DNA of 38,266 nucleotides, taken from Deltaproteobacteria bacterium. Lineage in GTDB: Bacteria > Desulfobacterota > UBA8473. The position numbers and the translations under genes were made by a program. Shown piece by piece: positions 4,009-20,667 of the stretch. The notes beneath the pieces were generated by a model. The model had not been told where the DNA came from, searched no databases, and saw only the letters and a list, made by a program, of their open reading frames with translations. The stretch lies in the NCBI GenBank assembly GCA_003599365.1, contig QZJR01000078.1, positions 1 through 38,266 of the forward strand. The letters run 5' to 3'. Every line of letters starts with the position of its first letter. Positions within the stretch are counted from its first letter, which is position 1.

Positions 4009-4095
4009 TCAACGAAAACACAGTAAGCAAAGAAAAGGATGTGTAAGTACTGGATCGATATATGAAGTTATTCGCTGTTCTATCAATGAGCTACC

Positions 4096-4119
4096 TATAG
4101 TGAACGAATTAAATAAATT
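4096..4119 (+). repeat. Orphan left end of the MITE-like element found intact at 27860-27984
   Basis: 24/24 identity: tatagtgaacgaattaaataaatt equals 27860-27883. Confidence 0.85.
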
Positions 4120-4478
4120 TGGCAGCCATGCGAGTGCTTCTTAATAGTGTTGGTCTATCATTTAACGATTTGGAAAAGATCTTTGTGGCAGGCGGTTTTG
4201 GTAACTACCTGAACGTGGAAAAGGCTATATTTATAGGTCTGCTTCCGGATATCCCTGTAGAACGAGTGCAGTTTATTGGTAACAGTTCTCTTACCGGTAC
4301 CCGAATGGCGTTGCTTTCCAGACATGCCTTTGCCAGGGCAAAAAACCTGGCGAACCAGATGACTTACTTCGAACTCTCCGTGAATCAAGACTTCATGAAT
4401 GAGTTTGTAGCATCTCTCTTTTTACCGCATACCGATATGAACCTGTTTCCTACGGTAAGGCGTTTGTTGGCAACTTAG
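4119..4478 (+). pseudogene. 3' fragment of an ASKHA-domain RACo-like (corrinoid reductive activator, DUF4445) gene
   Basis: IFVAGGFGNYLNVEKAIFIGLLPD...GNSSLTG...MTYFELS...FMNEFVASLFLPHTD is the RACo C-terminus. Only about 119 aa of a much longer protein remain, there is no RBS, and it abuts a repeat end. Confidence 0.8.
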
Positions 4479-4705
4479 GCAAAAGGATTTCAAATATCTG
4501 TAGTAACCGAACCATAACGACGACAAATATGGCAAGACCGGAAAAACAAGGAAGAACAAGATCGCGCACAATGAATCTGCAAAGATGAAGACCTCTCATG
4601 GAGTTATCCATGGTTAGCATGGTGGATGTCTGCAGATGCCAAGGAACAGGTTATCGTTTATGCCAAAGCATTTGAGGATACACACGGTGAATGTGGAGTT
4701 GAGAA

Positions 4706-5176
4706 ATGCAGCAGAGCGTTAACCGAAATAAGAATTGGCTTTACCTTATAATACTTGGTTTGGCTATTGGCGTTGTGTCGGGCGTGGGAGCGTACACTTT
4801 TCTTTATGCAAAAGGTTTCTCCTACATGAGCAATGCCCCGGAGGTCTGCACCAATTGTCATGTTATGGACGCTAACTACAATGCCTGGGTTAAATCGAGC
4901 CATAAAAACGTGGCTGTTTGCAACGACTGTCACGCGCCGCACTCCTTTTTGCGCAAGTATGAAACTAAGATAGTCAATGGTTTTTTACATTCATTTGCGT
5001 TCACTACCGGGCGTTTTCCCGACCCGATTCGGATTACCAATCGCAGCCGCCGGATCGCCGAGCAAACGTGCCGCTATTGTCATGCTGATATTGTTCAACA
5101 GATAGACACCGCGCATAAGGGCGCCGAACCGCTTGACTGCCTGCGTTGCCATCCGTCGGTGGGTCACTTGGAGTAA
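4706..5176 (+). CDS. nrfH: Cytochrome c nitrite reductase small subunit (tetraheme NapC/NirT-family quinol dehydrogenase)
   Basis: N-terminal TM helix, YMSNAPEVCTNCHVM, four CxxCH motifs (CTNCH, CNDCH, CRYCH, CLRCH), C-terminal VGH. Confidence 0.93.
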   Translation: MQQSVNRNKNWLYLIILGLAIGVVSGVGAYTFLYAKGFSYMSNAPEVCTNCHVMDANYNAWVKSSHKNVAVCNDCHAPHSFLRKYETKIVNGFLHSFAFTTGRFPDPIRITNRSRRIAEQTCRYCHADIVQQIDTAHKGAEPLDCLRCHPSVGHLE

Positions 5177-5293
5177 GGACATGTATAAAAAAGGAGAGAT
5201 CGGCAAAGTGTTACGGGGTCTGACACCTGGATCGTTAAAACCCCATGGGCGGGACGTCCATGCCATTTTAGGAATACGAAAGCGAGGGATACC

Positions 5294-6757
5294 ATGAACA
5301 TTAGACAAAGATTGATCTCCGCCGCGCAGCGCTGCGGCACAACCGTTCCCAGAATGCTGGCGTTTTTGATTGCGGTCATTGTGGGGACCATGGTTATAAC
5401 GTTCTTCGTGACGACAATCCTGATCAACATCTTCGAGCGCAAGCAGGAGGCGCGTAATCCGTTCTATCGAGTGGTAGAGTTGGATGATACCACGGAAGAT
5501 CCAGCGTTATGGGGCAAGGATTTCCCGCAGCAATACGATGCCTATCTACGCACAGTGGATCAGGTGCGCACAAAATACGGCGGGAGTGAAGCAGTCCAAC
5601 GAACACCGACCAATGTTGATCCGCGTTCCGTTCTTGCCCGGTCACGCCTCGAAAGCGATCCACGCCTCAAGAAGATTTGGGCGGGTTACGCCTTTGCCAT
5701 AGACTTCCGCGAAGAGCGCGGCCACGCCTATATGCTCGACGACCAGACCTACACGGAACGACAGCGTGTAGTCAAACAACCCGGAGCCTGTATACATTGC
5801 CACGCTTCGGTCTATGTGCCTTACAAGAAACTGGGCGACGGCAACTTGATAAAAGGCTTCGAAAAGATGAACCAGATGCCGTACTTCGAGGCGCGTAAAC
5901 TGGTTACTCACCCTGTGGCATGTATTGACTGCCACGATCCCAAGGACATGCAGCTCCGCATTACCCGCCCTGGATTTCTCGAGGGCATCCGCGTTTACAA
6001 GGAATCTCAGGGGATTCGAAACTACGACGTCAATGCCATGGCCACGCGCCAGGAGATGCGTTCCTTTGTTTGTGGGCAATGTCACGTGGAGTATTACTTT
6101 AAAGGCCAGGAAAAGCGCCTTACCTACCCGTGGTTTAAAGGACTCCAGGCTGATAATATCCTCGCATACTATGACGAGACAGGTTTCAAAGACTGGGCAC
6201 ACGCTGAAACAGGTGCGCCGATGCTCAAGGCTCAGCATCCTGAGTTTGAAACGTGGAAACAGGGAATTCACTCACGCGCCGGGGTGGCCTGCGCGGACTG
6301 CCACATGCCCTACAAGCGTGTAGGCGCACTCAAGATCAGTGACCATCATGTGAGTAGTCCGCTATTACCGGGCAATATCACCAATGCATGCCAGACCTGC
6401 CACCGTGTGCCGGAATCAGAGCTGAAGGCCCGGGCCGAGCAGATTCAGAACCGCGTGTTCGAGATGCGCAATGTGGCAATGGATGCGCTGGTAGAATTCA
6501 TTGGAGAGCTCAAGACGGCACGAATAGCCGGAGCAACCGACAATCAACTAATGGTTCCTCGGAAGCTCCAACGCAAGGCACAATTCCTGCTTGACTTCGT
6601 CGAATCCGAGAACTCGATGGGCTTTCACGCTCCACAGGAGTCCGAGCGTCTGCTGTTTCTGTCGCTTGACTATACGCGGCAAGGGCAAAAAGCAGTACAA
6701 GCCCTTAGCATGGAACTCTCTTCTACCGCTAAGTTCTCTTCGAAGGGAAAGCGTTGA
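5294..6757 (+). CDS. nrfA: Ammonia-forming cytochrome c552 nitrite reductase, CxxCH-type
   Basis: WAGYAFAIDFREERGHAY, CGQCHVEYYF, KAQHPEFE, SDHH and SENSMGFHAP. Five heme motifs: CIHCH, CIDCH, CGQCH, CADCH, CQTCH. Confidence 0.95.
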   Translation: MNIRQRLISAAQRCGTTVPRMLAFLIAVIVGTMVITFFVTTILINIFERKQEARNPFYRVVELDDTTEDPALWGKDFPQQYDAYLRTVDQVRTKYGGSEAVQRTPTNVDPRSVLARSRLESDPRLKKIWAGYAFAIDFREERGHAYMLDDQTYTERQRVVKQPGACIHCHASVYVPYKKLGDGNLIKGFEKMNQMPYFEARKLVTHPVACIDCHDPKDMQLRITRPGFLEGIRVYKESQGIRNYDVNAMATRQEMRSFVCGQCHVEYYFKGQEKRLTYPWFKGLQADNILAYYDETGFKDWAHAETGAPMLKAQHPEFETWKQGIHSRAGVACADCHMPYKRVGALKISDHHVSSPLLPGNITNACQTCHRVPESELKARAEQIQNRVFEMRNVAMDALVEFIGELKTARIAGATDNQLMVPRKLQRKAQFLLDFVESENSMGFHAPQESERLLFLSLDYTRQGQKAVQALSMELSSTAKFSSKGKR

Positions 6758-6984
6758 AGATTTCTTCGGCGTTATCCGTCATTACGGCTGCTGTTGTCGG
6801 TGTGGTTCTGAATCTGGCAGTCTGGTTCGGGATATATGTGATATTTCCGCAAACAGGCGGAATCAACTGGTTTGCAATCATATTGGGAATAATATCATTT
6901 ACAGCTATGCAATGGCTTAAAATCGGAATGATTCCGGTAATTGCGGTTTCAGGCATAGCTGGAGTAGTATGGAATTTATTTTAA
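6754..6984 (+). pseudogene. chrA: 3' remnant of a chromate efflux transporter (CHR family)
   Basis: ALSVITAAVVGVVLNLAVWFG...KIGMIPVIAVSGIAG resembles the ChrA C-terminal helices. Only 76 aa, with a TTG start overlapping the nrfA stop. Confidence 0.7.
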
Positions 6985-7014
6985 AATATATCTAACCAGA
7001 AAGGAGTTTATCGT

Positions 7015-7752
7015 ATGCCCCCGTATAACAAACATTTGGAGGCAAGCGCAAAACGAACAGGGAAATCTTATCAACAAATGCACGACTGGCTTGACAATCA
7101 TCCGCAGATGAAAGCCGAACGTCATAGTTTGGACAAACTTTTTGAAAACATCGAATTTGTAAAAACATCATGGGGAGAGGAAGCGGTTAAAGAATATCTT
7201 CAACATATCGTGGAAGACTCGGCAATGCAGGACATTGAAGCCCTTCAAAAAGCCGGATGTCCTGATGAGGCGGTTTCCCACAGTATCGAGGTTGCCAGAA
7301 AAGCATTGGAGATTTCAAGCAGAGTTAAAATTAATGTGGATCGGAAATTAATCATTCGCGGCGCGGTTTACCATGATCTGGGCAAGTCAAAAACCTACGG
7401 AATGCAGCATGGCGAAATCGGAGCGCAGATGGCGCAGGAACTGAATTTAGAGAATGAGATTATACAAATCATTCTAAAGCATATCCGGGGTGGGCTTACA
7501 GAACCTGAAGCAGTCGAACTCAATCTTCCGGTACGGGATTACAAGCTGAAAACGCCGGAAGAAAAGATTATCATTTATGCAGACAGGATGGTTGACATCT
7601 ACACCGACGGCATTGTTCCGGATACAGATGAAAAAGATGCTGAAAATCGTTTTGTTGAAATTTTGCAGCAGTATGAAAAATATGGCAAAAATGCTGTCAC
7701 TCTGAAAAGATATATCGATATGCACCAAGAAATTCATAGGTGGATGAATTGA
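7015..7752 (+). CDS. HD-domain (HDIG/TIGR00295-like) metal-dependent phosphohydrolase with an extra His-rich N-terminal domain
   Basis: HSIEVARKA...YHDLGK...HGEIGA...KHIRGG...YADR. RBS aaggag. Confidence 0.85.
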   Translation: MPPYNKHLEASAKRTGKSYQQMHDWLDNHPQMKAERHSLDKLFENIEFVKTSWGEEAVKEYLQHIVEDSAMQDIEALQKAGCPDEAVSHSIEVARKALEISSRVKINVDRKLIIRGAVYHDLGKSKTYGMQHGEIGAQMAQELNLENEIIQIILKHIRGGLTEPEAVELNLPVRDYKLKTPEEKIIIYADRMVDIYTDGIVPDTDEKDAENRFVEILQQYEKYGKNAVTLKRYIDMHQEIHRWMN

Positions 7753-7812
7753 TTTTATTTTGTTAAGAAGCAGAGACTTGTAACAAGGTCAAAAATAGAA
7801 TTTAGAGATAAC

Positions 7813-10800
7813 ATGTTAAATCTATTTAATTTTTTTAAGAAAGAAGATGCCTGCACACTGCTTACTCCGCTTGAAGGCAAACAAGCTGAAAGATACCGCC
7901 ATTTCAGAGAACTGCTAAAAAACAATTACCTTGCGCTTCACCTGATTGCGGATTTGGAGGAAGCCTGTTACGGAGGCAAACCGTTCACGCTTCACTGGGT
8001 AAGGATGAAATATCAGAAACTTTTTGAAGCAATAAGTAACATTATTTCATCATTTGAAGGTTTATCCAAAAAGGATATTTCATCGCTTATCCGGGCAAGG
8101 GATGTTATCGGCAATGCCATAAATGAAGAGTTCCGTCCCGAATTCGAGTTTCTAAGCAAAGATATTGTTATTCCTTTTGATGCCTTAACAAGTGCGGAAA
8201 TGAAGAAAATGACAGGCTCAAAAGCCGGAAACCTTGCACTTATCCGAAATGTTCTGGGCTTGCCGGTGCCGGACGGATTTGTGGTAACTGCGTATGCGTT
8301 TCAAAAATTCATGGATGCAAACGGTCTGAATGAGCCTGTTGCAGAAGCATTGGAGGAGATGTCTGTTGAATCCGGTGAAGAGATTGAACGGGTCAGCCGG
8401 AAAATCATAGATATGATTATGCAGTCGCCGGTTCCTTCCGAGATCGAAGAAGCATTGATAAACGCTTATGCCGCGCTTGAACAGAAAACTGTGCCTGGCG
8501 TGCATATTGCCGTTAGAAGCAGCGCAATCGGCGAAGATACGGAAGCCTCATTTGCAGGTCAGTATTCGACAGAGCTGAATGTAACAAAAGACCATATTAT
8601 ACATGCCTATAAAACAGTGATCGCAAGCAAGTATTCCGCACGGGCAATTTCTTACCGGACACATTACGGGCTGGATGATAGGGAAACGCCAATGTGTGTA
8701 GCAGGAATTGTGATGCTGAATCCAAAAGCCAGTGGCGTGCTTTACACAAAGAATCCGACCGAACCTTTTTCTGATGCGGTCAAAATCAATGCGGTCTTAG
8801 GGCTTGGGGAGTATCTGGTTGACGGAAGCGCTTCGCCGGATGTGTTTGTGGCAGACAAAAAAAGAAATATCATTTTGGAAAAACATATCGGTTCCAAAGA
8901 ATTTCGGATGGTAAATCTGAGCGGCGGCGGAATAGATTTGGAAAAAATACCCGAATCCGAAAGACAAATTCCTGCTATTGACGATTCCATCCTGTTTCAA
9001 CTGAGAGATTTCGGGCTAAAACTTGAAGAATATTTCGGAAACCCGCAGGATGTGGAATGGGCAGTGGATAAAAACGGAAAACTGTTTATTCTGCAGTCCA
9101 GACCCCTGAATATTACAGACACCAAAGCTTCGGAAGAAAAAATCGAGGTGAATGAGGCAGAGTATCCGGTTCTGATTTCAAGCGGAAAAGCGGCATCGCC
9201 GGGCGTGGCAATCGGAAATGTTTTTATTGTAGCCCCGGATATTGCGCTCAAAGATATTCCTGCCTATTCCATTCTTGTCGCCAAAACCGCATCGCCAAGT
9301 TATGCCGAAGCCATCGGCAGACTGCGAGGAATCATAACCGATATGGGGAGCACAACCAGTCATCTGGCTTCCGTAGCCCGTGAATTCGGAGTGCCGATGC
9401 TGGCGGACACCAAAAACGCCACATCGGTTCTTGCAAATCAGGATACCGTTACCTTTTATGCCGATATTACCAAAGTCTGGCAGGGAGCCGTGCAATCGCT
9501 CGAAAAGCATGTGAAACCTGCCAAACGCCCGATGTTCGAAAGTCCGGTATATCAAAAAACCAGAAAAATCCTTGACCACATTACGCCGCTTCATCTGACA
9601 GACCCCAAATCCCCGTCATTTACCCCTGAAGGATGTAATAGTATTCATGATATTATCAGGTTCACCCACGAAGAGTCCATGAAACAGATGTTTTCTTTCG
9701 GAGAAACCACAGGAAAAGGCATGACTTCCGTGAAACTGACCGCAAACCTTCCGATGTTCTTTTATCTGATTGACATCGGCGGAGGACTTAAGTTCGGGCT
9801 CTCCACCTGCGATGTTGTTACTCCGGACAGTGTGGAATCCATCCCGTTCAAGGCGGTGTGGAAAGGTTTTACGCATCCTGGCATCACATGGTCAGGCGCA
9901 ATTAACCTCAGTATGGGCAATTTTATGACTCTCATGGCTTCGGGAGCAACAGCGGGCGAAATGCCGGGCGCCACGCCCAGTTATGTTCTGATTGCGCAGG
10001 ATTATATGAATATGAGTGCGCGCTTTGGATACCATTTTGCGACCATTGATACGCTTTGCACTGAAGACAGCAACCAGAATTATATCACGCTGCAATTTTC
10101 AGGAGGCGTAGGGACATATTACCGGCGTTCTTTAAGGATTAATTTTCTTGGAAATGTGCTTAAGCGGCTGGGTTTTGAAGTATCTCTCAAAGGAGATCTG
10201 CTGGATGCGGCTCTGATGAGATATGACAAAGCAGCCACAGAGGAAAAGCTCGATCAGTTGGCTCGTCTTCTGGCATGCAGCCGCCTTCTGGACATGGCGA
10301 TTTCAGGTCAGGAACAGGTCGGTGAAATGGCAGAGTCCTTTTTCAGACAGGAATATAATTTTCTTGAAAGAAAACAGGAAAATGACCCAAAGGAATTGTA
10401 TGTTCACACCGGCTTTTGGAAGACGGTTAAAGAAAAGGATCATATTCGCTGCATTCAGGACGGAGCCAAATGGGGAAACGCTCTCACATCAGGGGTTTCA
10501 AAGCTCATGGGCAAAATGTTCGGAGATTCGTATCAGGAATTTTTGGACAACATCGACGCCTATCATTATTTCCCTTTTGCTATCGCCAAAAACAGCGAGA
10601 TTTCAGACGGATCGGCATCGGTTCTTGTCAATGCAGCATCAGGAAGCATTGACAGAGCCGGTGGCCTGGCATTCGGCATCAAAGATGTCTGCAACTATTT
10701 TGTTTTCAGAATTAATGCCCTTGAAGACAACGTGATTCTGTTTGAATTTGACAAATGCAAGAGGTATCAACGAAAGTCATTTAAAAAGAAAATAAATGCC

Positions 10801-10998
10801 GGCGAATGGTATTTGCTTAAAGTGGAAATTACGGGAAATACATTCAAAGGCTTTGTAAACGATGAACTGCTCATGGAATACGAAGCACAGCGAACTTTGA
10901 GCGGATATATCGGGCTTTGGACAAAAGCGGATTCGGTTACCCATTTTGAGAATTTACAGATTCAATCCGAACAGACCGTGAGAACAATTGAATTTTGA
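7813..10998 (+). CDS. PEP-synthase/dikinase-like protein: ATP-grasp (PPDK_N) + phospho-His swivel domain + C-terminal DUF1080/ConA-like beta-sandwich
   Basis: GSKAGNL, VPDGFVVT, AVRSSAIGED, SFAGQY, GLGEYLVDG, QDVEWA and LQSRPL; swivel motif TDMGSTTSHLASVAREFGVP; C-terminal NYFVFRINALEDNV...GYIGLWTKADSVTHFENL. Confidence 0.85.
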   Translation: MLNLFNFFKKEDACTLLTPLEGKQAERYRHFRELLKNNYLALHLIADLEEACYGGKPFTLHWVRMKYQKLFEAISNIISSFEGLSKKDISSLIRARDVIGNAINEEFRPEFEFLSKDIVIPFDALTSAEMKKMTGSKAGNLALIRNVLGLPVPDGFVVTAYAFQKFMDANGLNEPVAEALEEMSVESGEEIERVSRKIIDMIMQSPVPSEIEEALINAYAALEQKTVPGVHIAVRSSAIGEDTEASFAGQYSTELNVTKDHIIHAYKTVIASKYSARAISYRTHYGLDDRETPMCVAGIVMLNPKASGVLYTKNPTEPFSDAVKINAVLGLGEYLVDGSASPDVFVADKKRNIILEKHIGSKEFRMVNLSGGGIDLEKIPESERQIPAIDDSILFQLRDFGLKLEEYFGNPQDVEWAVDKNGKLFILQSRPLNITDTKASEEKIEVNEAEYPVLISSGKAASPGVAIGNVFIVAPDIALKDIPAYSILVAKTASPSYAEAIGRLRGIITDMGSTTSHLASVAREFGVPMLADTKNATSVLANQDTVTFYADITKVWQGAVQSLEKHVKPAKRPMFESPVYQKTRKILDHITPLHLTDPKSPSFTPEGCNSIHDIIRFTHEESMKQMFSFGETTGKGMTSVKLTANLPMFFYLIDIGGGLKFGLSTCDVVTPDSVESIPFKAVWKGFTHPGITWSGAINLSMGNFMTLMASGATAGEMPGATPSYVLIAQDYMNMSARFGYHFATIDTLCTEDSNQNYITLQFSGGVGTYYRRSLRINFLGNVLKRLGFEVSLKGDLLDAALMRYDKAATEEKLDQLARLLACSRLLDMAISGQEQVGEMAESFFRQEYNFLERKQENDPKELYVHTGFWKTVKEKDHIRCIQDGAKWGNALTSGVSKLMGKMFGDSYQEFLDNIDAYHYFPFAIAKNSEISDGSASVLVNAASGSIDRAGGLAFGIKDVCNYFVFRINALEDNVILFEFDKCKRYQRKSFKKKINAGEWYLLKVEITGNTFKGFVNDELLMEYEAQRTLSGYIGLWTKADSVTHFENLQIQSEQTVRTIEF

Positions 10999-12232
10999 CA
11001 GTCTGAAATCAGATATTATACTTCTTTTTTCGACACGCATTATACGTTTGTTTGCTTATGGCTTTCTGTCGGTTGTGCTGGTGTTGTACTTGGCGGAAAT
11101 CGGATTGAGCGGCTATGAAATCGGTCTGCTGCTGTCGCTGACGCTGCTCGGAGATGTGGCGGTTTCGCTGTGGATTACTACCGTTACGGACCGCATTGGC
11201 AGGAAACGGATGCTCATTTTCGGCTCTGTCCTGATGGTATCGGCAGGAGCGGTATTTGTTTTTACAAAGAACCCGCTATTTCTGACCGTCGCCGCTATTG
11301 TCGGCATCATCAGCCCGAGCGGAAACGAAATCGGCCCTTTTCTTTCCATAGAACAGGCTGCCCTGTCGCAACTGCTTCCGGATCAAAGACGCACCCATGT
11401 ATTCGGATGGTACAATCTTGCCGGATCATTTGCCACAGCCCTTGGGGCGCTTTGCAGCGGATGGCTGGTAGAATCTTTGCAAAAATCAGGGTTCACAATG
11501 TCAGACGCATACCGCTGTGTTTTATTCGGTTATTCTGCCTGCGGATTGCTGCTGATTCTGTTATTTATCGGACTGTCATCGGGTGTTGAAACAGGCAAAA
11601 CCCCGACCGTAAAGTGCAAAATGGGGCTTCACCGTTCGAGGAAGGTAGTCATCAAATTAAGCGCCTTGTTTTCTCTTGATGCGTTTGCAGGCGGCTTTAT
11701 CGTTCAAAGTATAGTGGCATACTGGTTTCATATCCGTTTCGGCGCCGATACAGGCGTTTTAGGCAGTATCTTTTTCGGGGCAAATATTCTGGCTGGAATT
11801 TCAGCGCTGCTTGCCGCCCGTATTGCAAAACGCATCGGGCTTATCAAAACAATGGTTTTTACGCATATTCCGTCAAATATACTGCTGTGTATTGTGCCTC
11901 TGATGCCGAATCTTGCATTGGCAATTTCTGTGTTGATGCTGCGTTTCAGTATTTCACAGATGGATGTGCCTACCCGTCAGTCATATATAATGGCGGTTGT
12001 GCTTCCTGATGAACGGGTTGCGGCATCCGGCATTACAAACATTGCCCGTTCAATAGGGGCCGCAGTATCGCCTTCTTTAAGCATATTTTTCTTTGCTAAT
12101 CCATTGTTTATCAGCGCTCCTTTTTTTCTGGCAGGCGGTCTGAAAATAATTTACGATTTGTGCCTTTACCACATGTTTCAGAATATCAAGCCGCCCGAAG
12201 AGAAAGGCACGCTAGTTGAGATGAAAAAATAA
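10988..12232 (+). CDS. MFS transporter
   Basis: About 12 hydrophobic segments, motif A (TDRIGRKRML), and MDVPTRQSY. The start overlaps the dikinase-like gene end. Confidence 0.9.
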   Translation: MNFDSLKSDIILLFSTRIIRLFAYGFLSVVLVLYLAEIGLSGYEIGLLLSLTLLGDVAVSLWITTVTDRIGRKRMLIFGSVLMVSAGAVFVFTKNPLFLTVAAIVGIISPSGNEIGPFLSIEQAALSQLLPDQRRTHVFGWYNLAGSFATALGALCSGWLVESLQKSGFTMSDAYRCVLFGYSACGLLLILLFIGLSSGVETGKTPTVKCKMGLHRSRKVVIKLSALFSLDAFAGGFIVQSIVAYWFHIRFGADTGVLGSIFFGANILAGISALLAARIAKRIGLIKTMVFTHIPSNILLCIVPLMPNLALAISVLMLRFSISQMDVPTRQSYIMAVVLPDERVAASGITNIARSIGAAVSPSLSIFFFANPLFISAPFFLAGGLKIIYDLCLYHMFQNIKPPEEKGTLVEMKK

Positions 12233-12513
12233 ATCGCCAAAGTCTCTTGTCAAATTTCCTGGTCAGGCCACACTTACTACAAGGCTTCTGACCTGTTGAT
12301 AACTCCCACAACTTTTTTACTATCGCAGCGAGGACAATTTTTCATAGCTGATTTCTACATTACATCAGCTAATTATCAAAGAACTAAGTGCAATTTAAAT
12401 GGGGAATTACCTTTAATTTAAAGGCATCTAAGATATGCTACAGTTCCTCCCGCGCGCCGCACTGTTTCGGAAAATCGTCCATATCTCCTTGATTCCATCT
12501 GCTGATTTCGCTA

Positions 12514-12570
12514 ACCATTTCGCTCGATTAAATCCTGACAGACTCGTCAAAACCGGTTGACAAGCAGGCC
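12514..12570 (+). repeat. Degenerate copy of the promoter region at 16040-16094
   Basis: 22-bp identity aaaaccggttgacaagcaggcc (12549-12570 = 16073-16094), plus shared accattt and aaatcctga upstream. Confidence 0.8.
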
Positions 12571-12599
12571 CGATTTTTGCCATTGATGATCTGAACAGA

Positions 12600-14243
12600 C
12601 GGTCAACTAAGGACTGCCTCATATTCAATTTTGTTGCCACCAATACCATAGAAGGCAGGGTTCTCCGGAGGCTGCTGGAAAGACTCCAGGAAATACGCAA
12701 TGCCCTTGATGATGATGCAGTGTTCAATGTTGTGGGAGAAGTCCTTCCGGCTGTTCATATAGAACGCATCCTTCGTGACTATTATGCAGGCAGGCTTGGA
12801 GACGCTGATCTCGAAGAACGCCTGCTTGAAAACGTGGATGAGAGGCAGTTTCGAGCTATCTGCCAGAATGCACTGGAAGGTCTGGCATCAAAAACACTTA
12901 ATCTGGAAATGCTGATAGAACGCCGCGCCCGATCACAGGAATGCCGTGTAGTGCCTGAGACTATAGCCAGGTTTATCCGCGAAGCGGCCGAATACGTTCC
13001 ACTCAAGCTCAAGACATTAGATAATATGCCTCACACATTTGAACCGGCGCGAACCCCTGTAATTCTCCAAAAATACGAGCGGGAACCCAACTGGAAATTA
13101 CCTGCATTAGCAGTCAAATACCCGCGTTGTTCCACCGACCGCGTCACGGCTGAAACCCACAATCTCGAATGGGTAACACCTGGCCACCCACTTTTTGAAG
13201 CAATTCGCAGGCACACCTTTGAAAAAGCCGTTGAAACATTCGGTAAAGGCGCTTGTTTCTATTCCTTACAGCACGAAGTTCCATCCCGTATCGACTTCTA
13301 TCGGGCACGAGTTGTTGATGGCTTAGGGCAGGTTGTTCACGAACGGCTTTTTGCGGTGGAGATTAGGGACAATACCGGCCCATGTCTCCGTGAGTCGAAC
13401 ATGCTCGGAGATTTTATGCCTGCCGAAGCGCCGGAAGAAATCCCGGGTGTTACTTCAGTGCCTGAAGCTTCTGCGTGGCTGCACAAGAATGCTCTTGAGG
13501 CATTTCTCGAAGAAACACGCAAAGAGCGCTTGGCAGAGGTACAACGCATTGCTGAGCACGTGGAACTTTCGCTTACCGAACTGCTTCAACGGGCGGATGA
13601 AGAGATTGGGAAGGCCATGGAGGACAGGGAGAAAGGTATTGCCGGAGCAGACGGACGTATGGCTCAGGCAGAAAACCGACACGCCGAACTTATGGCCCGC
13701 CGCGAACGTCGCAGACAGGAACTCGAACGCCAGGGGGCGTTGTCGCTTCAGGCTATAGAACGTATTACAAGCATTATTGTCCTTCCTCATCCCGAACGCG
13801 AAGCGCCTGACGTCCGTAGTATGCGGCCGAATTCGGAGACTGAAGCCATTGCCATGAAAGTGGTAATGGATTATGAAAAGGTTAAGGGTCGACAAGTTTA
13901 CGATGTTCACGAGAAGAACCTTGGCTACGATATCACCAGTTTGGACATCAACTCCGGAGAACTGCGTCTCATTGAGGTGAAGGGGATAGGCGATGTCACG
14001 GGGACGATTTTGCTTTCGCCCAACGAACGCCGTGTAGCAGAAGACTGGCGAGACTGCTATTGGCTCTATGTAGTGACAAGTTGCAATACAACGCCGACCA
14101 TGCAGGAACCTATCAAAGACCCAGCACGTTTTCCATGGCGCGAGGTTACAAAGGTTGCCCACTACCGGCTCGAAGTAAACGCCATGACGAGACCGATGAT
14201 GGTCAGGGAGGATAAACCACCGTATGGAAGACAGAAACCATGA
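12600..14243 (+). pseudogene. 5'-truncated SNF2-family helicase with C-terminal DUF3883 (NOV_C, PD-(D/E)xK-like) domain
   Basis: Upstream of the GTG 12720 ORF the frame reads KDCLIFNFVATNTIEGRVLRRLLERLQEIR, the segment after helicase motif VI. The C-terminus has NLGYDITS...RLIEVKG...NE...YWLYVV. No Walker A or DExH is present. Confidence 0.75.
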
Positions 14244-15288
14244 GATCCTTTGAATATGGATATTATCTTGAAACGCCGCTTTCCCATGCGCTTCTGATGA
14301 CAATGCGATCATTGGGTGAATTCAGAGGTCGCCAGACACTTTATACCGACCAGTTTCCTGAAGTTCTGGATACATTACGGCGGGTCGCTATTATACAGAG
14401 CACGGAATCATCGAACAGAATCGAGGGCATTACCGTTGGCCCGGGTAGAATCGAAGCCATTGTTTCAAAGAAAGCCAGCCCTCGCGACCGTTCCGAGCAG
14501 GAAGTCGCAGGATACAGAGATTTCTTGCATCCATCCATACCAACCATGCCGGGCTTGAAGTTTCAAACAGCCTCATCCTGGACTGGCATCGAGCCCTATA
14601 CCGTTTCACCAATGAAATGGGTGGAAAATGGAAAGAAAAGGACAATGCTATTCTTGAAGTTAGACAGGATGGGCGTCAAGTGGTGCGCTTTCAGCCCGTG
14701 TCCGCGCTGGCCACACCGGATTTTATGAACGGCCTGAGTAAGCTGTTCAAGCAGGCCACGGACAATGCTGAAACCGACCCTCTGCTGCAAATTGCCACGT
14801 TTGTTTTTGATTTTGAATGTATTCATCCTTTCAAAGACGGGAACGGACGTATCGGACGTCTGCTTACGCTTCTTCTCCTCTATCACGCCGGGTATGAAGT
14901 CGGCGGATACATAAGTCTGGAACGCATCATTGAAGACAGCAAGGATACCTATTACGAAGCGCTCAACAAAAGCTCGCAAGGCTGGCATGAGGGAAAGCAT
15001 GATCTTCGTCCCTGGTGGAATTATTTCCTAGGGATGCTGATTGCAGCTTACAAGGATTTTGAAGACAGGGTCGGAAAAATAACGTCAGCAAGGGGCGCAA
15101 AGAGAGAAATGGTGATAAATGCCATTGAAAGTCTGTCTGAGAAGTTTACGATCGGCGACCTCAGACGAGCCTGCCCCGGTGTGAGCTATCCCACCCTTCA
15201 GCGCGCTCTTGCCGATTTGAGAAAGGAAAAGAAGGTAAGGTGTCTCGGCAGGGGGCCTGATGCAGAATGGGAGCACATCAAGGGTTGA
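14240..15288 (+). pseudogene. Fic-family protein with C-terminal HTH, split by a 1-nt frameshift near 14521
   Basis: The 5' frame gives STESSNRIEG...SEQEVAGYRD. The second frame continues LASIHTNHAG...WHRALY...GGKWK...HPFKDGNGRIGR...CPGVS. Confidence 0.88.
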
Positions 15289-15326
15289 TAAGATAATCTT
15301 ATCACGACATGCTGAAGTGATAAGAT
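15286..15326. promoter_or_regulatory. Nested inverted repeats at the Fic stop codon (putative protein-binding site)
   Basis: tgataagat-a-atcttatca and atcttatcac-N11-gtgataagat. Confidence 0.4.
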
Positions 15327-15354
15327 TGCAACGGTGTGGCTGATCCAAAAGTTG

Positions 15355-15495
15355 ATGGCCGAGCTGTTCCAATATGAAAAGTTCCGGAAACAGATGCTGA
15401 ACGCGCCCTCTCCCGTGGAGCGGCATTTCCTAGAAGCGGTCCGGGAGGTTAAAGAACTGGAGAAGGTCAAAACAGCAAGCTCGAAGAAGCAGTGA
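15355..15495 (+). pseudogene. C-terminal stub resembling RhuM-family proteins
   Basis: QYEKFRKQMLNAPSPVERHFLEAVREVKELEK...* recalls the RhuM C-terminus. Recognition from memory only. Confidence 0.45.
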
Positions 15496-15541
15496 AAGGA
15501 TGCTGGCGGGAAATGGACGGCAAACAAGGACAAGTCATGAG

Positions 15542-15590
15542 TGACAGCATCGTAAAAAGTAAATTTTCCCATCCCCCGGCGGGAGGGGAC
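15542..15590 (+). repeat. Half MITE: terminal-repeat-like end plus one REP-type arm, fused to the norB duplicate
   Basis: tgacagcatcgtaaaaagt resembles tgatggcttcgtaaaaagt at 38147. It is followed by the GC-rich arm cccatcccccggcgggagggga. Confidence 0.55.
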
Positions 15591-15954
15591 TTACGGTCTT
15601 CTAGCCATCGGTTTGCTTTTGTTTTCCATGCGGGGGTTAGTCAGGGAGGATGGATGGAGTGACGGGTCACTCAAGGTCTCTTTCTGGGGAACTAATATCG
15701 GGCTTTTTATTATTTTCATCGGGACTTTATTGCCTATCGGTATCCTCCAGGTTCTTGATAATATCAAATACGGCTTCTGGCATGCCCGTTCAGATGAATT
15801 CTGGTTCCAGGATACCATTCAATTATTAGGACAAATCAGGGCGTTGCCAGACCTGCTGATTATCCTTGGCGCTGGTAGGATCCTCCTGTTCATGGTTAAG
15901 GCGATAACCAGACTGAAACAGGCTGAGGTGAAATCTGGTGAAAGGTTTGATTAG
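15586..15954 (+). pseudogene. norB: Second copy of the 3' end of qNOR (norB fragment)
   Basis: Ungapped match to 2366-2734 (offset 13,220 bp). Manual count gives about 42 mismatches in 370 bp (~89%), many at third codon positions. Confidence 0.95.
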
Positions 15955-16080
15955 CGGGCAGGGGAAATAGAGAAGGTTATCGAATACCTCTTCCCTACCG
16001 TGAAGAGTGTGATGGATATTACACCAGTTGGTCTCGGTGACCATTTTACTACGTCAAATCCTGAAACTCGGAAAAACCGG

Positions 16081-16108
16081 TTGACAAGCAGGCCGGTTTC
16101 CATATAAT
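16081..16108 (+). promoter_or_regulatory. Consensus sigma70 promoter
   Basis: TTGACA (16081-16086), 16-bp spacer, TATAAT (16103-16108). Confidence 0.75.
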
Positions 16109-16144
16109 CTAAACTCTAAACCAGTTTGTTCTAATCGTATAAGA

Positions 16145-16192
16145 TGGAAATTCCGGAAGGAAGAAGTGGACGGCTGGGTGAAGTCGGGGTAA
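16145..16192 (+). pseudogene. C-terminal stub of an excisionase-like HTH_17 regulator
   Basis: WKFRKEEVDGWVKSG* is the typical end of small excisionase-family DNA-binding proteins that head defence operons. Confidence 0.55.
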
Positions 16193-16208
16193 AAAGGAGG
16201 GAAGGCAT

Positions 16209-16499
16209 GTGGAATTAGAGAAAAGTCTAAGACTGAAACGCAACGATATCCTACTTCTGGCTTCACGGCACGGGGCAAAAAATGTCAGAATTTTCGGTTC
16301 TGCCGCCAGAGGAGAAGCAGTGCAGGAAAGCGACGTGGACTTTTTGGTAAAAATGGAAGATGGACGTAGCCTCCTCGATCTTAGCGCTCTTGTCGCGGAT
16401 CTTCAGGATATTCTTGGGCGGAGGGTAGACGTTGTTTCTGAAGACGGTCTTTACTGGCTGCTGCGACGGAAGATTCTCAAGGAGGCTAAGCCGTTATGA
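16209..16499 (+). CDS. Minimal nucleotidyltransferase (MntA-type antitoxin)
   Basis: RIFGSAARGE...SDVDFLV...LGRRVDVV. RBS aggagg. Stop overlaps the next start (ATGA). Confidence 0.9.
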   Translation: MELEKSLRLKRNDILLLASRHGAKNVRIFGSAARGEAVQESDVDFLVKMEDGRSLLDLSALVADLQDILGRRVDVVSEDGLYWLLRRKILKEAKPL

Positions 16500-16707
16500 C
16501 GAAAGATTCCCGTGTTTACCTAGTCCAGATACTTGAGCGGATCGAGAGAATCATTCAGTATACTGCCACTGGAAGGAACACTTTTTTTTCAGACCCGCTA
16601 ATCCAGGATGCCGTCATCAGAAATTTCAGGTTTCTATTTCTGCAATTCTCCCGCCGCTTGATCAGATCGAAAAGGAGCTTGCCGGCGATGAAAAAACAAG
16701 CGAATAA
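16496..16707 (+). pseudogene. HepT-like (DUF86/HEPN) RNase toxin with an internal deletion and frameshift
   Basis: MTKDSRVYLVQILERIERI...QDAVIRNF is a DUF86 N-terminus. There is no RxxxxH motif, and a C-terminal-like tail (ISAILPPLDQIEKELAG..*) follows in another frame from 16627. Confidence 0.75.
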
Positions 16708-16727
16708 GAGAAAGTAAAAAAGCAAAA

Positions 16728-17057
16728 GTGATGGATGTTCTGCTCACGTTCACAGGATTTCATGATCCCTATTTCAAGGGGCTGGTTGACCAGGAGGAAC
16801 AGCCCGGGCACATCCTTTCCCTCCTAAACACACGCTCATTCGATCATATATTTCTTTTCGATACCCCAAGCACACAACGGGTTACTGGGGAAACAAAGGA
16901 CACTATAACGAAACTCCATAGTGGTAGCGAGGCACACGTTCTTGAAATCAACCTTTCCGATCCGACCAATTACCAAGAAATATTAATAGGGCTCAGAGTG
17001 CACCTTCATCGTAATATACCTCACAAATCATACTTGATTCACATTATTATCCAATAG
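16728..17057 (+). pseudogene. N-terminal fragment of an RtcR-like (CARF-type) sigma54 activator
   Basis: VLLTFTGFHDPY...GHILSLL...FDHIFLF...LSDPTNYQEI fits the CARF-like Rossmann start of these regulators. No AAA/GAFTGA domain follows. Confidence 0.55.
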
Positions 17058-17158
17058 ATATCGCTTATAATAAGTTTTTAAATAAACAAGTTCGGCACGC
17101 TTTCAAAGATACCCTTTCACGAAGCAACGACCCTTTTAGACTGTATCTCGCCTTCTTA

Positions 17159-19330
17159 ATGCATTGCCCAGCAATCTCTCTCACCTATCTCACTATCCAT
17201 GTATGCGAAGGGTTTGGGTCTCATGGAACTTTTGAAGTTTACCCGTTTATTCAAGATGCCCTTAAGCTTCCAGAATCATTAACAACATCTCAAAAGAATA
17301 AGCTGTGGAAGGCTTACAGGGCCTCATGCCTTAAATTGGGTCTTTCCATCTCAACGCGTCTTTCCGGTGCCCATTTCATGGTTGATGAGTACCTGAGACA
17401 AAGTGGTGTTCCCATCCCATATGTAGGAGACCTGACAGATAAAATGCTTCGTTATGGAAAAGTCACAGGTATTCCCGATGATGATGATCCCGCTGCTATT
17501 AAAAGATGGCAAGAAGGGTTGAGCCTTAGGCTTTTGCCACCTTTTTCGAAAGTAGCAAGACAGGCAATCGTCTTGGATGATAACGGTTATTATATCCGCC
17601 TCTTTCTCAAGCTTCTTGAAAAGCCAGCAGAGCCTGCTAGCGCACTATCAGATTTTGAATTGCGAATGTCCGATGCGATCCACAGACAGGAAATAACCGC
17701 AGTTCTCCGCCGAAAAGGTAAGTCTCTTCGTATCGTACAGGTCTTATGGAGAGATAATCAACTTGGCGTTGAACTCCCGCCTGGAGAAGGGGTGGAATGG
17801 TCGATAACGGTTGGGGATATAACAACCAACTATATCGGACAGATGGAAAGCAGATTTATTCCCTTTGATAAACCTTTACCACCGTTTGTTGAAATAAAAG
17901 GTGAGGATCGCAGCAGACCGCCAATAAGTCTATGGGAAGATGAGAGAAATAATCGTCTACTGATATTTACTGCGTCCGGCACCTTTGTCAACTCGTCAAA
18001 ACTGAGCGAAGCGCCAATAACCCTGGAGCCTGGTGACTATCATCTGGTTTTGCGTTTCATTCCGGATGGTCTAAGAGAAACCGTTGAGGAGGTGAGAATA
18101 CAGCCTTCACTGTATCTGCTTCCCCTACGTTTGGAACCCGGGGAAAAATTTGTTCTGAAGCACGGACCGGCCACCCTTGAACTGCATGCTGATCTGAAGC
18201 CGATTCTTCTTTGGGAGGGTACTAGCATCAAAGGGCTTAGAGGCAATGAAATATATTGCAGCAATAATTTGAAGCTGCGTGCAATCATTCCCGAAGAATA
18301 TTTTGTAGATGGTATTAAATATTACATTCGTTTTAGCCAGGCAGCAGAAACTGATGAACTAATTGCACAAATCTCCAACGATCAACCCGATGCAGCCATT
18401 ATCAATGTATACAAACTTATTCGAAATAGGTGGAGACCTGGCGTCACAAGGATTCTCGCTGAAATCTACCGTGAAGGGATACAGCGCCCCGTTTTTCGCT
18501 CGGCCATCATGTTATGGATAGGACTGGAGACGGTTAGAAGTCGGACACACTTCTATTGTTCTGCTCATCCATCCAATTTGATCGAGGAAGAATGCGACAA
18601 CCTTTTCATCAACAGAGAGGAGTCATATATCAGTTACCGGAACAAAGACAATCGATTTTTTCGCATGGTCTTCAATCTTGGCGATGCGAAGCGCTTTATC
18701 TTCACTTTGCCTGTTCCGGGAATATTCATGCAATTGAAAGATTATTCCGCTTCGACTGAAATTGAACGACCCTTAACAAAAGGATCCACACTTTCCGTTG
18801 CCCGGAATTCGAGAAACGTTCTCGAAATATCTTCCACATCAAGTGGGTTCTTAAAATTGGGTAATTTTAGGGCACGTGTGGATTTCAGTAAAAGGCTTCC
18901 CTTGTCCGGTCTCATTGAGTACCTGGGCCCGGAAACACATACGCTTCAGTTCATAGACGATGAAAGAGGCTGCGAAGAAGACCTATTGAATTTGGTTTCA
19001 CCTCATGAAATCCTCGCTTATTCGGTAGAACCCAAAAGTAATTTTTACCGCATTAGGTTTTCCCTGGCGCAGCAAGTCACGGAACTCACTATGAGAGCTA
19101 TTGATTTACTTTCCGGAACGTGTGAGATGCTACTTTTAGAATGTAATAGCACTTTCGAATCGACAGAATCCGGAGTACGCGGCTGGTTGACGTGTGAAAG
19201 CAATAACCAACAAGGTTTCTTCAATCACGATTTGTTGCTTTCGCTTAACGCGTGGCCTAATGGAACGTGGGTTATTGATCCTGAAGCTAAGATAAATGGA
19301 CGTTGGAACTCTGATCTCCCTCGCAGCTGA
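17159..19330 (+). CDS. Large hypothetical protein (723 aa), probably defence-island associated and truncated at one or both ends
   Basis: Long ORF whose frame is open back to 17015 with no obvious RBS. Helical N-part, beta-rich remainder, abrupt end next to a pseudogene. Confidence 0.6.
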   Translation: MHCPAISLTYLTIHVCEGFGSHGTFEVYPFIQDALKLPESLTTSQKNKLWKAYRASCLKLGLSISTRLSGAHFMVDEYLRQSGVPIPYVGDLTDKMLRYGKVTGIPDDDDPAAIKRWQEGLSLRLLPPFSKVARQAIVLDDNGYYIRLFLKLLEKPAEPASALSDFELRMSDAIHRQEITAVLRRKGKSLRIVQVLWRDNQLGVELPPGEGVEWSITVGDITTNYIGQMESRFIPFDKPLPPFVEIKGEDRSRPPISLWEDERNNRLLIFTASGTFVNSSKLSEAPITLEPGDYHLVLRFIPDGLRETVEEVRIQPSLYLLPLRLEPGEKFVLKHGPATLELHADLKPILLWEGTSIKGLRGNEIYCSNNLKLRAIIPEEYFVDGIKYYIRFSQAAETDELIAQISNDQPDAAIINVYKLIRNRWRPGVTRILAEIYREGIQRPVFRSAIMLWIGLETVRSRTHFYCSAHPSNLIEEECDNLFINREESYISYRNKDNRFFRMVFNLGDAKRFIFTLPVPGIFMQLKDYSASTEIERPLTKGSTLSVARNSRNVLEISSTSSGFLKLGNFRARVDFSKRLPLSGLIEYLGPETHTLQFIDDERGCEEDLLNLVSPHEILAYSVEPKSNFYRIRFSLAQQVTELTMRAIDLLSGTCEMLLLECNSTFESTESGVRGWLTCESNNQQGFFNHDLLLSLNAWPNGTWVIDPEAKINGRWNSDLPRS

Positions 19331-19369
19331 TACATCACAGTCTTGTCGTCAACCCTTCGAGTTGCGTTG

Positions 19370-19831
19370 CTTCATCAACATTACCACCGGGCTTCAGGTG
19401 TTGGAAACCGATTTTATATTTGAAGCGCCGGACAGATGCCTGATCAAATCTTAAAAGCGGTTCGTCGTGCAGATCAGGATGCCTCGAAATCGTTCTATCT
19501 GGGCGAGCAAGTCTTTGGTATGGCTGATTTCCCAATATCTGACAGCCCGGCTGCGAATGAAAAGGAAAGAATCCGTATCGTCCATAACCAGTACGGTATC
19601 CTTCGCTTCTGCCTTGGAAAAAACCTGGCTGATATTCTGTTCAGTTTAGCCCATATAGGGGCTTACAATGTCGCTGGTTCTCTTGACCATAAGTTCTCTT
19701 TCCAGATGTCCGGCAATCTGGCGCGCCAGTTCACTATTTCCTGTGTCAGGCGGACCGTAGAAAAGAAGGTTGAAGTTTCTGACTAGTTGCTGCTGATCGG
19801 AACTGCGGAGACAACGATCAAACTCTTTCAG
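19370..19831 (-). pseudogene. Degraded AAA+ ATPase
   Basis: Manual minus-strand translation: NLLFYGPPDTGNSELARQIA...SDIVSPYMG*TEQNI...VLVMDDTDSFL...LAQIERFRGILICTTNRF*, then DQASVRRF in a shifted frame. Walker A and B are degenerate, with stops at 19646-19648 and 19451-19453. Confidence 0.85.
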
Positions 19832-19869
19832 GTGTTATGAGGGCAACAGCCCTTAAAGATTTGACCCTA

Positions 19870-20667
19870 TCAAATGCTCGGCGTACCGCATTCTTTAAGA
19901 AAATCATTCAGGTTCCCCTCATTTCGTATTCCTAAACGAGTAAGGGCAAAGTCGTACCTGACCGGGTCCTCTGGAGAGATTGTTCTGAAGGCGGCGGTTA
20001 TCTCAGATGCGGTGCGTATATCTGCCTGTTTTCGCCCTGTTATCTTGAGGGAAAGACATATCCTGTGCATGTGGGTATCAAGAGGGACGATGAGCTTGGA
20101 TGCCGGCACTGTATCCCACCCCCCTGGGTCTACTTCATCCTCCCTCACCATCCAGCGCAGGAAAAGGTTCAACCGTTTGCATGCACTGCCTTTCGTTGGA
20201 GAGGGCAAGAGGCTGTTAGCCCTGCCGTTGTGCTCAGTGGTCAATTCCTTAGCAAAGGCTGAAATCGCTGGCAGGATTGTACTATCACGATCATTCATGC
20301 CGGCAGCAAAACATGCATGAAGGGAACCATACCGTCCTATAACGCCTTTGATCCCCAAAAGCATCGATACAAGATCCTCTCCCGTGGTAAACCGATGTTT
20401 GAATCCTGCAAAGTCGGGAAGAAGTGCCTCCCTTGAGGCCTGGTTCAGAAAGATATATGGAGATGGTTGCATAAGCTCCCGCACTAAGGAAACACTTTTC
20501 AGTATCTGTTGAACCCTTCCATAGGCAAGGGACGAGGCAACTAGACCAACTATCTCACGGTCTCTAATATCTGCATAATTATATAAGAACTCAAGGGGAT
20601 CCGGATGGACGAACTCTCGTCGGTTGTATCTGGCATAAAGGTCGTCAAGGACATTTTTTTTAAGCAT
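19870..20667 (-). CDS. TIGR02757/DUF2400 family protein
   Basis: DPLEF, SLAYGRV, SACKRLNLFLRWMVR, PLDTHMHR and DPVRYDFAL. Confidence 0.9.
   Translation of the reverse strand: MLKKNVLDDLYARYNRREFVHPDPLEFLYNYADIRDREIVGLVASSLAYGRVQQILKSVSLVRELMQPSPYIFLNQASREALLPDFAGFKHRFTTGEDLVSMLLGIKGVIGRYGSLHACFAAGMNDRDSTILPAISAFAKELTTEHNGRANSLLPSPTKGSACKRLNLFLRWMVREDEVDPGGWDTVPASKLIVPLDTHMHRICLSLKITGRKQADIRTASEITAAFRTISPEDPVRYDFALTRLGIRNEGNLNDFLKECGTPSI

Follow-up and report, generated by a model that had tools for sequence, protein, structure and literature searches.

Do four closely packed genes, encoding a transporter remnant, a phosphohydrolase, a kinase and a transporter, form one dedicated system, and what would the kinase act on? 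The question is raised by positions 6754 to 12232 of a 38,266-nucleotide stretch of DNA from Deltaproteobacteria bacterium (Desulfobacterota, UBA8473; GenBank assembly GCA_003599365.1, contig QZJR01000078.1), which in its entirety we call the window. An original prediction, made from the DNA letters alone, placed there an undescribed operon that would phosphorylate, dephosphorylate and export a small molecule or respond to oxyanion stress, or else form a regulatory phosphorelay controlling the transporters. Its layout (four genes on one strand, with gaps of 30 and 60 bp and then an 11-bp overlap of the dikinase stop with the MFS start) is borne out by the coordinates of the open reading frames (ORFs), and the identities it assigned (oxyanion-exporter remnant, phosphohydrolase, phospho-His kinase with a beta-sandwich, MFS transporter) agree with Pfam and fold matches:

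6754-6984, + strand: chrA', 76 aa with a TTG start, what remains of the C terminus of a CHR-family transporter (ChrA), roughly its last two membrane helices
7015-7752, + strand: HD/HDIG phosphohydrolase, 245 aa, a member of a small chrB-associated HD family
7813-10998, + strand: barrel-less dikinase resembling phosphoenolpyruvate (PEP) synthase, long form, 1061 aa
10988-12232, + strand: MFS transporter of a strongly conserved unnamed subfamily, 414 aa with a TTG start

The four genes do not hold together as one dedicated system. A chrB-HD-(MFS or chrA) module and the MFS gene each stand without the dikinase, and most relatives of the dikinase have TauE permeases, response regulators and universal stress proteins (USP) as partners. 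We tentatively regard the block as a mobile ChrB-type oxyanion-stress module (chrA, HD, MFS) carrying an inserted dikinase of a family whose short form matches a published Desulfovibrio nitrate cluster. That family probably switches anion transporters on and off, and the reading we favour for the block, plausible if short of probable, is an ATP-driven kinase/phosphatase switch on oxyanion transport.

A barrel-less dikinase with a family-specific middle domain

The dikinase was divided into four parts, all on the + strand:

8209-9150: ATP-grasp nucleotide-binding domain, residues 133-446 (PF01326 PPDK_N, E 8e-89)
9265-9453: phospho-His swivel domain, residues 485-547 (PF00391, E 5e-17), with the H517 codon at 9361-9363
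9505-10422: middle domain specific to the family, residues 565-870, standing where the PEP/pyruvate barrel would be and bearing the motif C608..H612-D613..R616..H619-E620
10576-10989: C-terminal beta-sandwich, CBM66/ConA-like, residues ~922-1059 (profile and Foldseek matches)

ATP-grasp and swivel follow each other in the same order as in the PEP synthase PpsA, the T-S-H phospho-His motif of PpsA is presumably that of the window dikinase as well, and S516-H517-L518 is invariant in all 25 long-form orthologues. Unlike PpsA, the protein has no PEP/pyruvate TIM barrel: PF02896 was absent from its Pfam scan. The PpsA chains 8a8e, 9dae and 2ols of the PDB match residues ~114-571 only (E 1e-90 to 1e-101), and the NCBIfam PpsA models cover residues 116-574 only, with scores far under their cut-offs; NF005057, for one, reaches 340.8 bits where its cut-off is 598, and its match stops at model position 479 of 798. 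Relative to PpsA, the dikinase carries ~115 extra N-terminal and ~490 unrelated C-terminal residues. An ordinary PEP synthase is thus ruled out, as the original prediction had held.

Other barrel-less dikinases were compared in the same way. PigC, RedH and phenylphosphate synthase are relatives of this kind that act on small molecules; the NCBIfam PigC and RedH models score below their cut-offs on the window dikinase, in the ATP-grasp part only. Rifampin phosphotransferase (RPH) was rejected as an identity (NF041857, 228 bits against a cut-off of 999, ATP-grasp part only; swivel at residues 485-547 of 1061). RPH is nevertheless a barrel-less dikinase in which the swivel His shuttles phosphate from the ATP-grasp domain to a non-barrel acceptor domain, where an Arg/Glu pair positions the phospho-His (PMC4844700, in the part available). 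It differs in having the swivel at the C terminus and the acceptor domain in the middle, and its rifampin-binding domain gave no sequence or fold match to our middle domain by PDB profile, Foldseek or VIA. VadK (Rv1127c), which from its size we take to lack extra C-terminal domains, offers another parallel. It is PPDK/PpsA-derived, has lost the barrel, and is reported in the available part of a preprint (PMC12636432) to autophosphorylate on His and to act as a regulator; it differs in being PPDK-derived and actinobacterial, and beyond shared domains the comparison is one of descriptions. PADLOC gave no match for the dikinase, and no signal peptide was apparent at its N terminus by reading.

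The middle domain defines the family. No Pfam match was found for it in any of 100 family members, and its AF2 model has a pLDDT of 84. The best Foldseek match in the PDB has an E of 0.03 and the best VIA Z is 5.9, within noise, neither of which proves a new fold; a search of the ESM Atlas yielded nothing beyond clusters that are unnamed or called "PEP-utilizing" (scores 0.82-0.84). Across 100 long and short members, H612, D613, R616 and H619 are invariant and C608, E620 and H741 nearly so, and the invariant residues sit on one helix of the predicted model. By analogy with the Arg/Glu pair in the acceptor domain of RPH, we read this H612/D613/R616/H619 face as the putative second phosphotransfer site of the enzyme.

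A profile search with the middle domain found 1,703 clusters at 50% identity, 845 of them at E <= 1e-30. Among the best 150 cluster representatives, 84 are short forms (800-999 aa), 15 are long forms (>=1000 aa) and 51 are shorter still, most likely fragments. In representatives of at least ~800 aa the domain starts at about residue 540-610, after the swivel. Two Desulfovibrionaceae genomes hold five and nine copies, and the source genome has three short-form paralogues on contigs C70 and C16, in operons ordered TauE-hypothetical-dikinase-receiver-dikinase-histidine kinase (HK) and TauE-hypothetical-receiver-dikinase.

The C-terminal module of the long form matches the levanase CBM66 4azz by profile (E 2e-6) and 4b1m_C by Foldseek (E 1e-11, TM(target) 0.81), with sub-threshold Pfam jelly-roll matches at residues 985-1052. 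The likeness to CBM66 is one of fold and profile only.

The Desulfovibrio nitrate cluster and the partners of the dikinase family

The available part of PMC4001038 (Korte 2014) describes, for D. alaskensis and D. vulgaris, a nitrate cluster with the order DUF169-TauE-hypothetical-COG3221-HK-receiver-dikinase (DVU0246)-dual-specificity phosphatase (DSP; DVU0245). DVU0246 is annotated there as a "PPDK PEP/pyruvate-binding + mobile domain" protein, and the D. alaskensis counterparts are Dde_0604 (dikinase-like) and Dde_0605 (DSP phosphatase). Transposon mutants of D. vulgaris in DVU0246 (dikinase), DVU0247 (receiver), DVU0250 and DVU0251 (TauE) show unaffected growth in 100 mM nitrate, and the DVU0245 phosphatase mutant stays nitrate-sensitive, with a fitness of -6.04; the authors propose that nitrate enters via a leaky thiosulfate transporter (PMC4001038, same part). 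Since the short form matches this cluster, for which mutant phenotypes are published, "undescribed", as the block had been called, was too strong. PMC10102598 makes no mention of DVU0245-0251, and PMC5840216, on sulfate transporters, has zero mentions of kinase, chromate or universal stress.

Full-length orthologues of the DSP occur in 30 of 61 Desulfovibrionaceae genomes, and a dikinase with the middle domain lies directly upstream of the DSP in 17 of the 20 loci fetched. Over residues 331-860, the C..HD..R..HE motif included, one of these dikinases shares 34% identity with the window protein. By its middle domain, the window dikinase belongs to this barrel-less "nitrate-cluster" family. Like the nitrate-cluster dikinase, it combines ATP-grasp and a mobile His domain without a barrel annotation, with an adjoining phosphatase and an anion permease in the operon. 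It differs in its long form with the CBM66-like module, in having HD rather than DSP, and MFS (plus a ChrA tail) rather than TauE, and in the absence of receiver, HK, COG3221 and DUF169 genes beside it; the regulator of its relative in locus L093 is ChrB.

Neighbours of the long form were counted in 26 loci, of which 24 come from species genomes; the other two are the window and the metagenome contig L093. Three candidates were excluded: L033, which a contig end cuts off, L092, whose 3.1 kb lack the upstream part, and L035, a short form. A contig end hides one flank in L002, L021, L032, L034 and L075, so partner counts are lower bounds, and the window and L093 represent one lineage. A phosphatase adjoins the dikinase in 14 of the 26 loci: an ArsC-like low-molecular-weight protein tyrosine phosphatase (LMW-PTP) in eight, a DSP in three and the orthologous HD in three. 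An MFS gene adjoins in five, and chrA or chrB in six (window, L093, L017, L019, L023 and L027). The co-occurrence that had been proposed as a check is therefore found in part: each partner recurs, and the set does so only partially. The MFS genes of L019 and L023 are distant from that of the window (31% over 129 aa).

The block itself is conserved in L093, an independent 67-kb contig with the order chrB-HD-dikinase-MFS and a full chrB at its head; it is 91% identical in nucleotides to window 6998-12207, with unrelated flanks. In L092 the dikinase is 88% identical and no MFS gene lies downstream. Four further dikinase homologues (65-77% identical) and MFS homologues are on equally sized contigs (19601, 14884, 15215 and 24350), which suggests that the dikinase-MFS pair persists in the closer clade.

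The LMW-PTP partners are ArsC-like, with a CX5R-S loop and a DP motif, and most keep the ArsC-type Cys pair; seven of the eight genes end -4 to +4 bp from the dikinase start. Four of the proteins carry a thioredoxin-like N-terminal extension (L013:7277-7996, L020:7318-8004, L024:7315-8004 and L036:5196-5948), and the one in L013 is recognised by the model of the DF family (seleno)protein. Downstream of the dikinase come a thioredoxin-reductase-like gene in L031 and a glutathione S-transferase (GST) gene in L036. L022 (TauE-TauE-DUF169-methyl-accepting chemotaxis protein-LMW-PTP-dikinase) and L013 (COG3221-HK-sigma54 response regulator-LMW-PTP-dikinase) share the plan of the nitrate cluster, with LMW-PTP in the place of DSP. 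Locus L025:4112-11174 has two tandem long-form dikinase genes with a DSP phosphatase gene between them.

Around the short form, 66 loci were analysed, with neighbour clusters named from representative members. A signalling cluster (receiver domains, PAS/Cache sensors) adjoins the dikinase in 44 of these loci and a TauE/SafE permease is near it in 22. Less frequent neighbours are USP (9), an unnamed protein of ~230 aa (8), CBS (7) and DASS symporters (5), and 17 loci carry two short forms in tandem.

The chr module and its genomic setting

The chrA' product aligns with positions 104-166 of the 166 in PF02417 Chromate_transp (E 3e-4; 21.3 bits, under the 28.6 cut-off) and is 60% identical to residues 359-437 of the 440-aa ChrA in L019. 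Its 76 aa fall short of a full-length CHR protein (two domains, ~400-460 aa), no further chrA pieces were found in the window, and chrA' is a dead tail in the source genome. A search of that genome with PF09828 (chrB) gave zero matches, and control genomes gave none either. The likeness to a ChrB-ChrA determinant thus lies in the ChrA-type tail, in the full chrA and/or chrB beside the dikinase in L017, L019, L023, L027 and L093, and in the HD family, a regular neighbour of chrB; the window differs from such a determinant in its truncated ChrA and in having no chrB that we could find. A chrA tail alone (the last ~60-80 codons, stop-free) stands directly upstream of the next gene in two unrelated loci, window 6739-6984 (next gene HD) and L017:1988-2170 (next gene dikinase). 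Such tails may have been kept for promoter or coupling functions, or they may encode a small membrane protein.

The HD protein matches PF01966 (E 3e-15) and passes the HDIG model TIGR00277 (64 bits, cut-off 27.6). Membership of the HD family TIGR00295 was rejected (99 bits, cut-off 172), PADLOC matched it at chance level only, and it has no sequence relative in the PDB at E <= 0.01. Its orthologues occur in 12 of 401 genomes of the phylum, and it is 53% identical to a true orthologue, the HD beside chrA in L023. At nine distinct strong HD loci, chrB or chrA adjoins in seven and an MFS-like gene in the other two, the MFS-like genes being assigned by BLASTP alone at 24-36% identity. In loci L121-L129 from phylum genomes, the ~70-aa N-terminal part of HD is sometimes a separate small ORF.

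The MFS protein (PF07690, E 2e-29) has homologues 66-91% identical across several phyla, named only "MFS transporter". Its orthologues (62-66% identical) were found in 8 of the 401 genomes, two of them with a gene upstream that encodes ChrB_C only.

The operon sits in a mobile stretch of a sulfate-reducer-type genome, whose extent was obtained by comparing the flanks with those of same-genus genomes:

4460-19886: variable region of ~15.4 kb with nrfHA, the operon and defence-like gene fragments

In the same-genus genomes G003 and G005 (and in G006 from ~2735), the sequences at window ~4460 and ~19886 are directly joined and the region between them is missing; the long-form dikinase, the HD and this MFS were found in no same-genus genome. 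At the left edge, a fragment encodes 119 aa from the C terminus of a RACo ASKHA protein (4119-4478), and at the right edge lies a DUF2400 gene (19870-20667, - strand). The region also holds the C-terminal part of a NOV_C/HmaA-like gene, a SoFic-like gene, an MNT-like gene and a CARF-like piece.

The operon was expected to be AT-rich against its surroundings. Its G+C content is 0.447 (chrA' 0.41, HD 0.42, dikinase 0.45, MFS 0.47), lower than that of nrfA on its left (0.536) and of the NOV_C gene on its right (0.514); since the whole window has 0.464, the operon is AT-richer than its immediate flanks only. The HD, dikinase and MFS ORFs are intact, without internal stops. A scan for promoters and terminators remained at chance level (12 against 9.9 expected and 6 against 7.2 expected, respectively).

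Contigs of public runs bear on the left junction. A 229-nt contig bridges chrA' and HD with zero differences. On contigs of three runs, nrfA is ~99% identical, the match to the window ends at 6694 and the sequence beyond is unlike it. No piece bridging window 6694-6757 was among the matches listed from these contigs, and from run to run the depth of the operon falls as that of nrfA rises. The junction of nrfA with chrA' may be a strain-specific breakpoint or possibly an assembly join.

Repeats and further genes were observed in and beside the variable region. Two stretches are, from their sequences, repeat elements: 25 nt at 4095-4119, found unchanged on four more contigs of the source genome, and ~200 nt at 4462-4663, which recurs at 73-78% identity on a further contig of that genome and in others of the genus. 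A 34-nt direct repeat (88% identical; 12542-12575 and 16066-16099) brackets the NOV_C/HmaA-C-like gene, a 162-aa ORF and the SoFic-like Fic gene, and may mark the ends of an inserted cassette. A 723-aa ORF at 17159-19330 has no Pfam or PADLOC match; its neighbours are the MNT-like nucleotidyltransferase (16209-16499) and the CARF-like fragment (16728-17057).

A proposed switch on anion transport and its alternatives

Both ideas of the original prediction, phosphorylation and dephosphorylation coupled to a transporter and a regulatory phosphorelay, fit these data. The kinase/phosphatase switch fits best because the phosphatase partners come from three unrelated folds, permease and signalling genes recur as neighbours, and the D. 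vulgaris dikinase and phosphatase mutants have opposite phenotypes. In the mechanism below, autophosphorylation, acceptor, regulatory output and anion identity are all inferred. The ATP-grasp domain would use ATP to phosphorylate H517 on the swivel, with release of AMP and Pi as in PpsA and RPH. The swivel would carry the phosphoryl group to the middle domain, where the H612/D613/R616/H619(E620) face would receive it, and the middle domain would hand it on to an acceptor that most likely belongs to the proteins of the transport apparatus. The co-encoded phosphohydrolase (HD here, ArsC-like LMW-PTP or DSP elsewhere) would undo the mark. The output would be control of flux through the co-encoded anion permease, which is MFS here and TauE, ChrA or DASS elsewhere.

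Several observations weigh against this reading. Beside the window dikinase there is no receiver-domain or TauE gene; HD and MFS stand there instead. The assembly, 74% complete, yielded neither chrA nor chrB at full length. No dikinase lies within 1.5 kb of HD at any of the nine strong HD loci, so HD may serve the chr module rather than oppose the dikinase, and none lies within 1.5 kb of any of the eight MFS orthologues. A relative has HD and MFS without the dikinase: a contig of run X2 joins the end of HD (7747) to the start of MFS (11004), with 25 other letters between. Because the HD and MFS orthologues and run X2 lack it, the dikinase looks inserted into a chrB-HD-MFS/chrA module. Among the phosphatase partners, the ArsC-type Cys pair and the thioredoxin-like extension hint at redox chemistry on an oxyanion rather than simple protein dephosphorylation. 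The phosphatase mutant of D. alaskensis G20 has a positive (high) fitness instead of a negative one (PMC4001038, same part), and the published DVU0246 and Dde_0604 fit the family by gene order and by the DSP-adjacent relatives, as opposed to their own sequences. The literature on the dikinase family yielded no biochemistry and no paper on the middle domain. The chrB-HD-(MFS or chrA) module, for its part, recurs without the dikinase and is undescribed; no HD gene or dikinase in chr operons was found in the literature.

The commonest long-form partner, ArsC-like, points to another function, which we consider unlikely, though with several findings in its favour. The dikinase would phosphorylate a small molecule, an oxyanion or a toxic metabolite (ATP + X + H2O -> X-P + AMP + Pi), and in this detoxification or activation pathway the CX5R or HD partner would reduce or hydrolyse the product, or MFS or ChrA would export it. 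The Cys pair kept by most of these partners is that of thioredoxin-coupled arsenate reductases, and the DF family extensions, the thioredoxin-reductase-like gene of L031 and the GST gene of L036 are in keeping with it. So are the chrA or chrB neighbours in six long-form loci and the efflux-type MFS genes in five. Every barrel-less relative characterised so far acts on a small molecule, as does RPH (PMC4844700, in the part available), and the available part of PMC9723548 lists chromate and arsenate as substrates of the sulfate-activating enzyme and as inhibitors of sulfate reducers. Five and nine copies per genome, with mostly signalling neighbours (receiver, PAS/Cache, USP, CBS), look regulatory rather than catabolic, however, and the DSP and HD partners are not reductases. 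The D. vulgaris kinase, receiver and permease mutants moreover share one phenotype, as expected for one control pathway (PMC4001038, same part).

The four genes might instead form no system at all, having been shuffled together in a variable island with the dikinase dropped, as an independent gene, between HD and MFS. We judge this rather improbable. The ~15.4-kb region is indeed missing from same-genus genomes and holds fragments (the RACo tail and the NOV_C/HmaA-like and CARF-like pieces), the chr module and the dikinase each occur apart, as in the run X2 variant, and L092 has no MFS gene after its dikinase. The dikinases linked to chrA or chrB also form no single supported clade in the long-form tree, which is a quick tree with a backbone support of 36, in which the outgroup rows L081_par and L086_par are wrong ORFs with a branch length of 10. 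Chance assembly accords poorly with the retention of HD-dikinase-MFS at 91% nucleotide identity between different flanks in L093, with the 11-bp overlap and three stop-free ORFs, and with internal terminator-like sites no more frequent than by chance. Outside L093, chrA or chrB stands beside the dikinase in five lineages, far above the expectation for a gene present about once per genome.

A bolder version of the chemistry, which we think very unlikely, makes the enzyme an "oxyanion, water dikinase": a carrier resembling a phosphotransferase system (PTS) that would use its middle domain to phosphorylate the tetrahedral oxyanion under transport (chromate-, arsenate-, thiosulfate- or sulfite-type), and no protein kinase. 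The activated anion would be reduced by the ArsC-like or thioredoxin-like partners, hydrolysed by DSP or HD, or expelled by ChrA, MFS or TauE. If true, oxyanions would have another route to activation in addition to ATP sulfurylase, and the company that dikinase genes keep with chr genes and anion permeases in sulfate reducers would be explained.

In plant starch, glucan, water dikinase (GWD), a protein of known domain order, works with the phosphatases SEX4 and LSF2. A similar glycan dikinase, in which the CBM66-like module would guide the phosphorylation of a polysaccharide and a DSP-type phosphatase would reverse it, draws on the fold and profile match and on the DSP partners (three long-form loci and the 17 Desulfovibrionaceae loci) and is most improbable, given that the beta-sandwich is accessory (only the 15 long forms among the best 150 representatives have room for it), that no glycan-metabolism genes recur near long- or short-form dikinases, and that the window protein has no apparent signal peptide, no Pfam match to CBM20 or CBM45 at E <= 0.01 and a ConA-like fold of a generic kind.

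The switch on anion transport, our favoured reading, concerns a point of practical weight. Sulfate reducers are controlled industrially by sulfate-like oxyanions (nitrate, perchlorate, molybdate and chromate), and their resistance is largely decided by the entry and exit of anions, according to the available parts of PMC9723548 and PMC4001038. The dikinase family is large (the three genomes in which copies were counted have several apiece) and has a strong published mutant phenotype that is so far one of genetics only. New here are its pairing with ChrB/ChrA/MFS modules and with an HD hydrolase, the exchange, at least three times, of its phosphatase partner for one of an unrelated fold, and the undescribed chrB-HD module. 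Together they provide a defined set of genes in which an ATP-driven switch, or an activation step, in anion transport can be tested.

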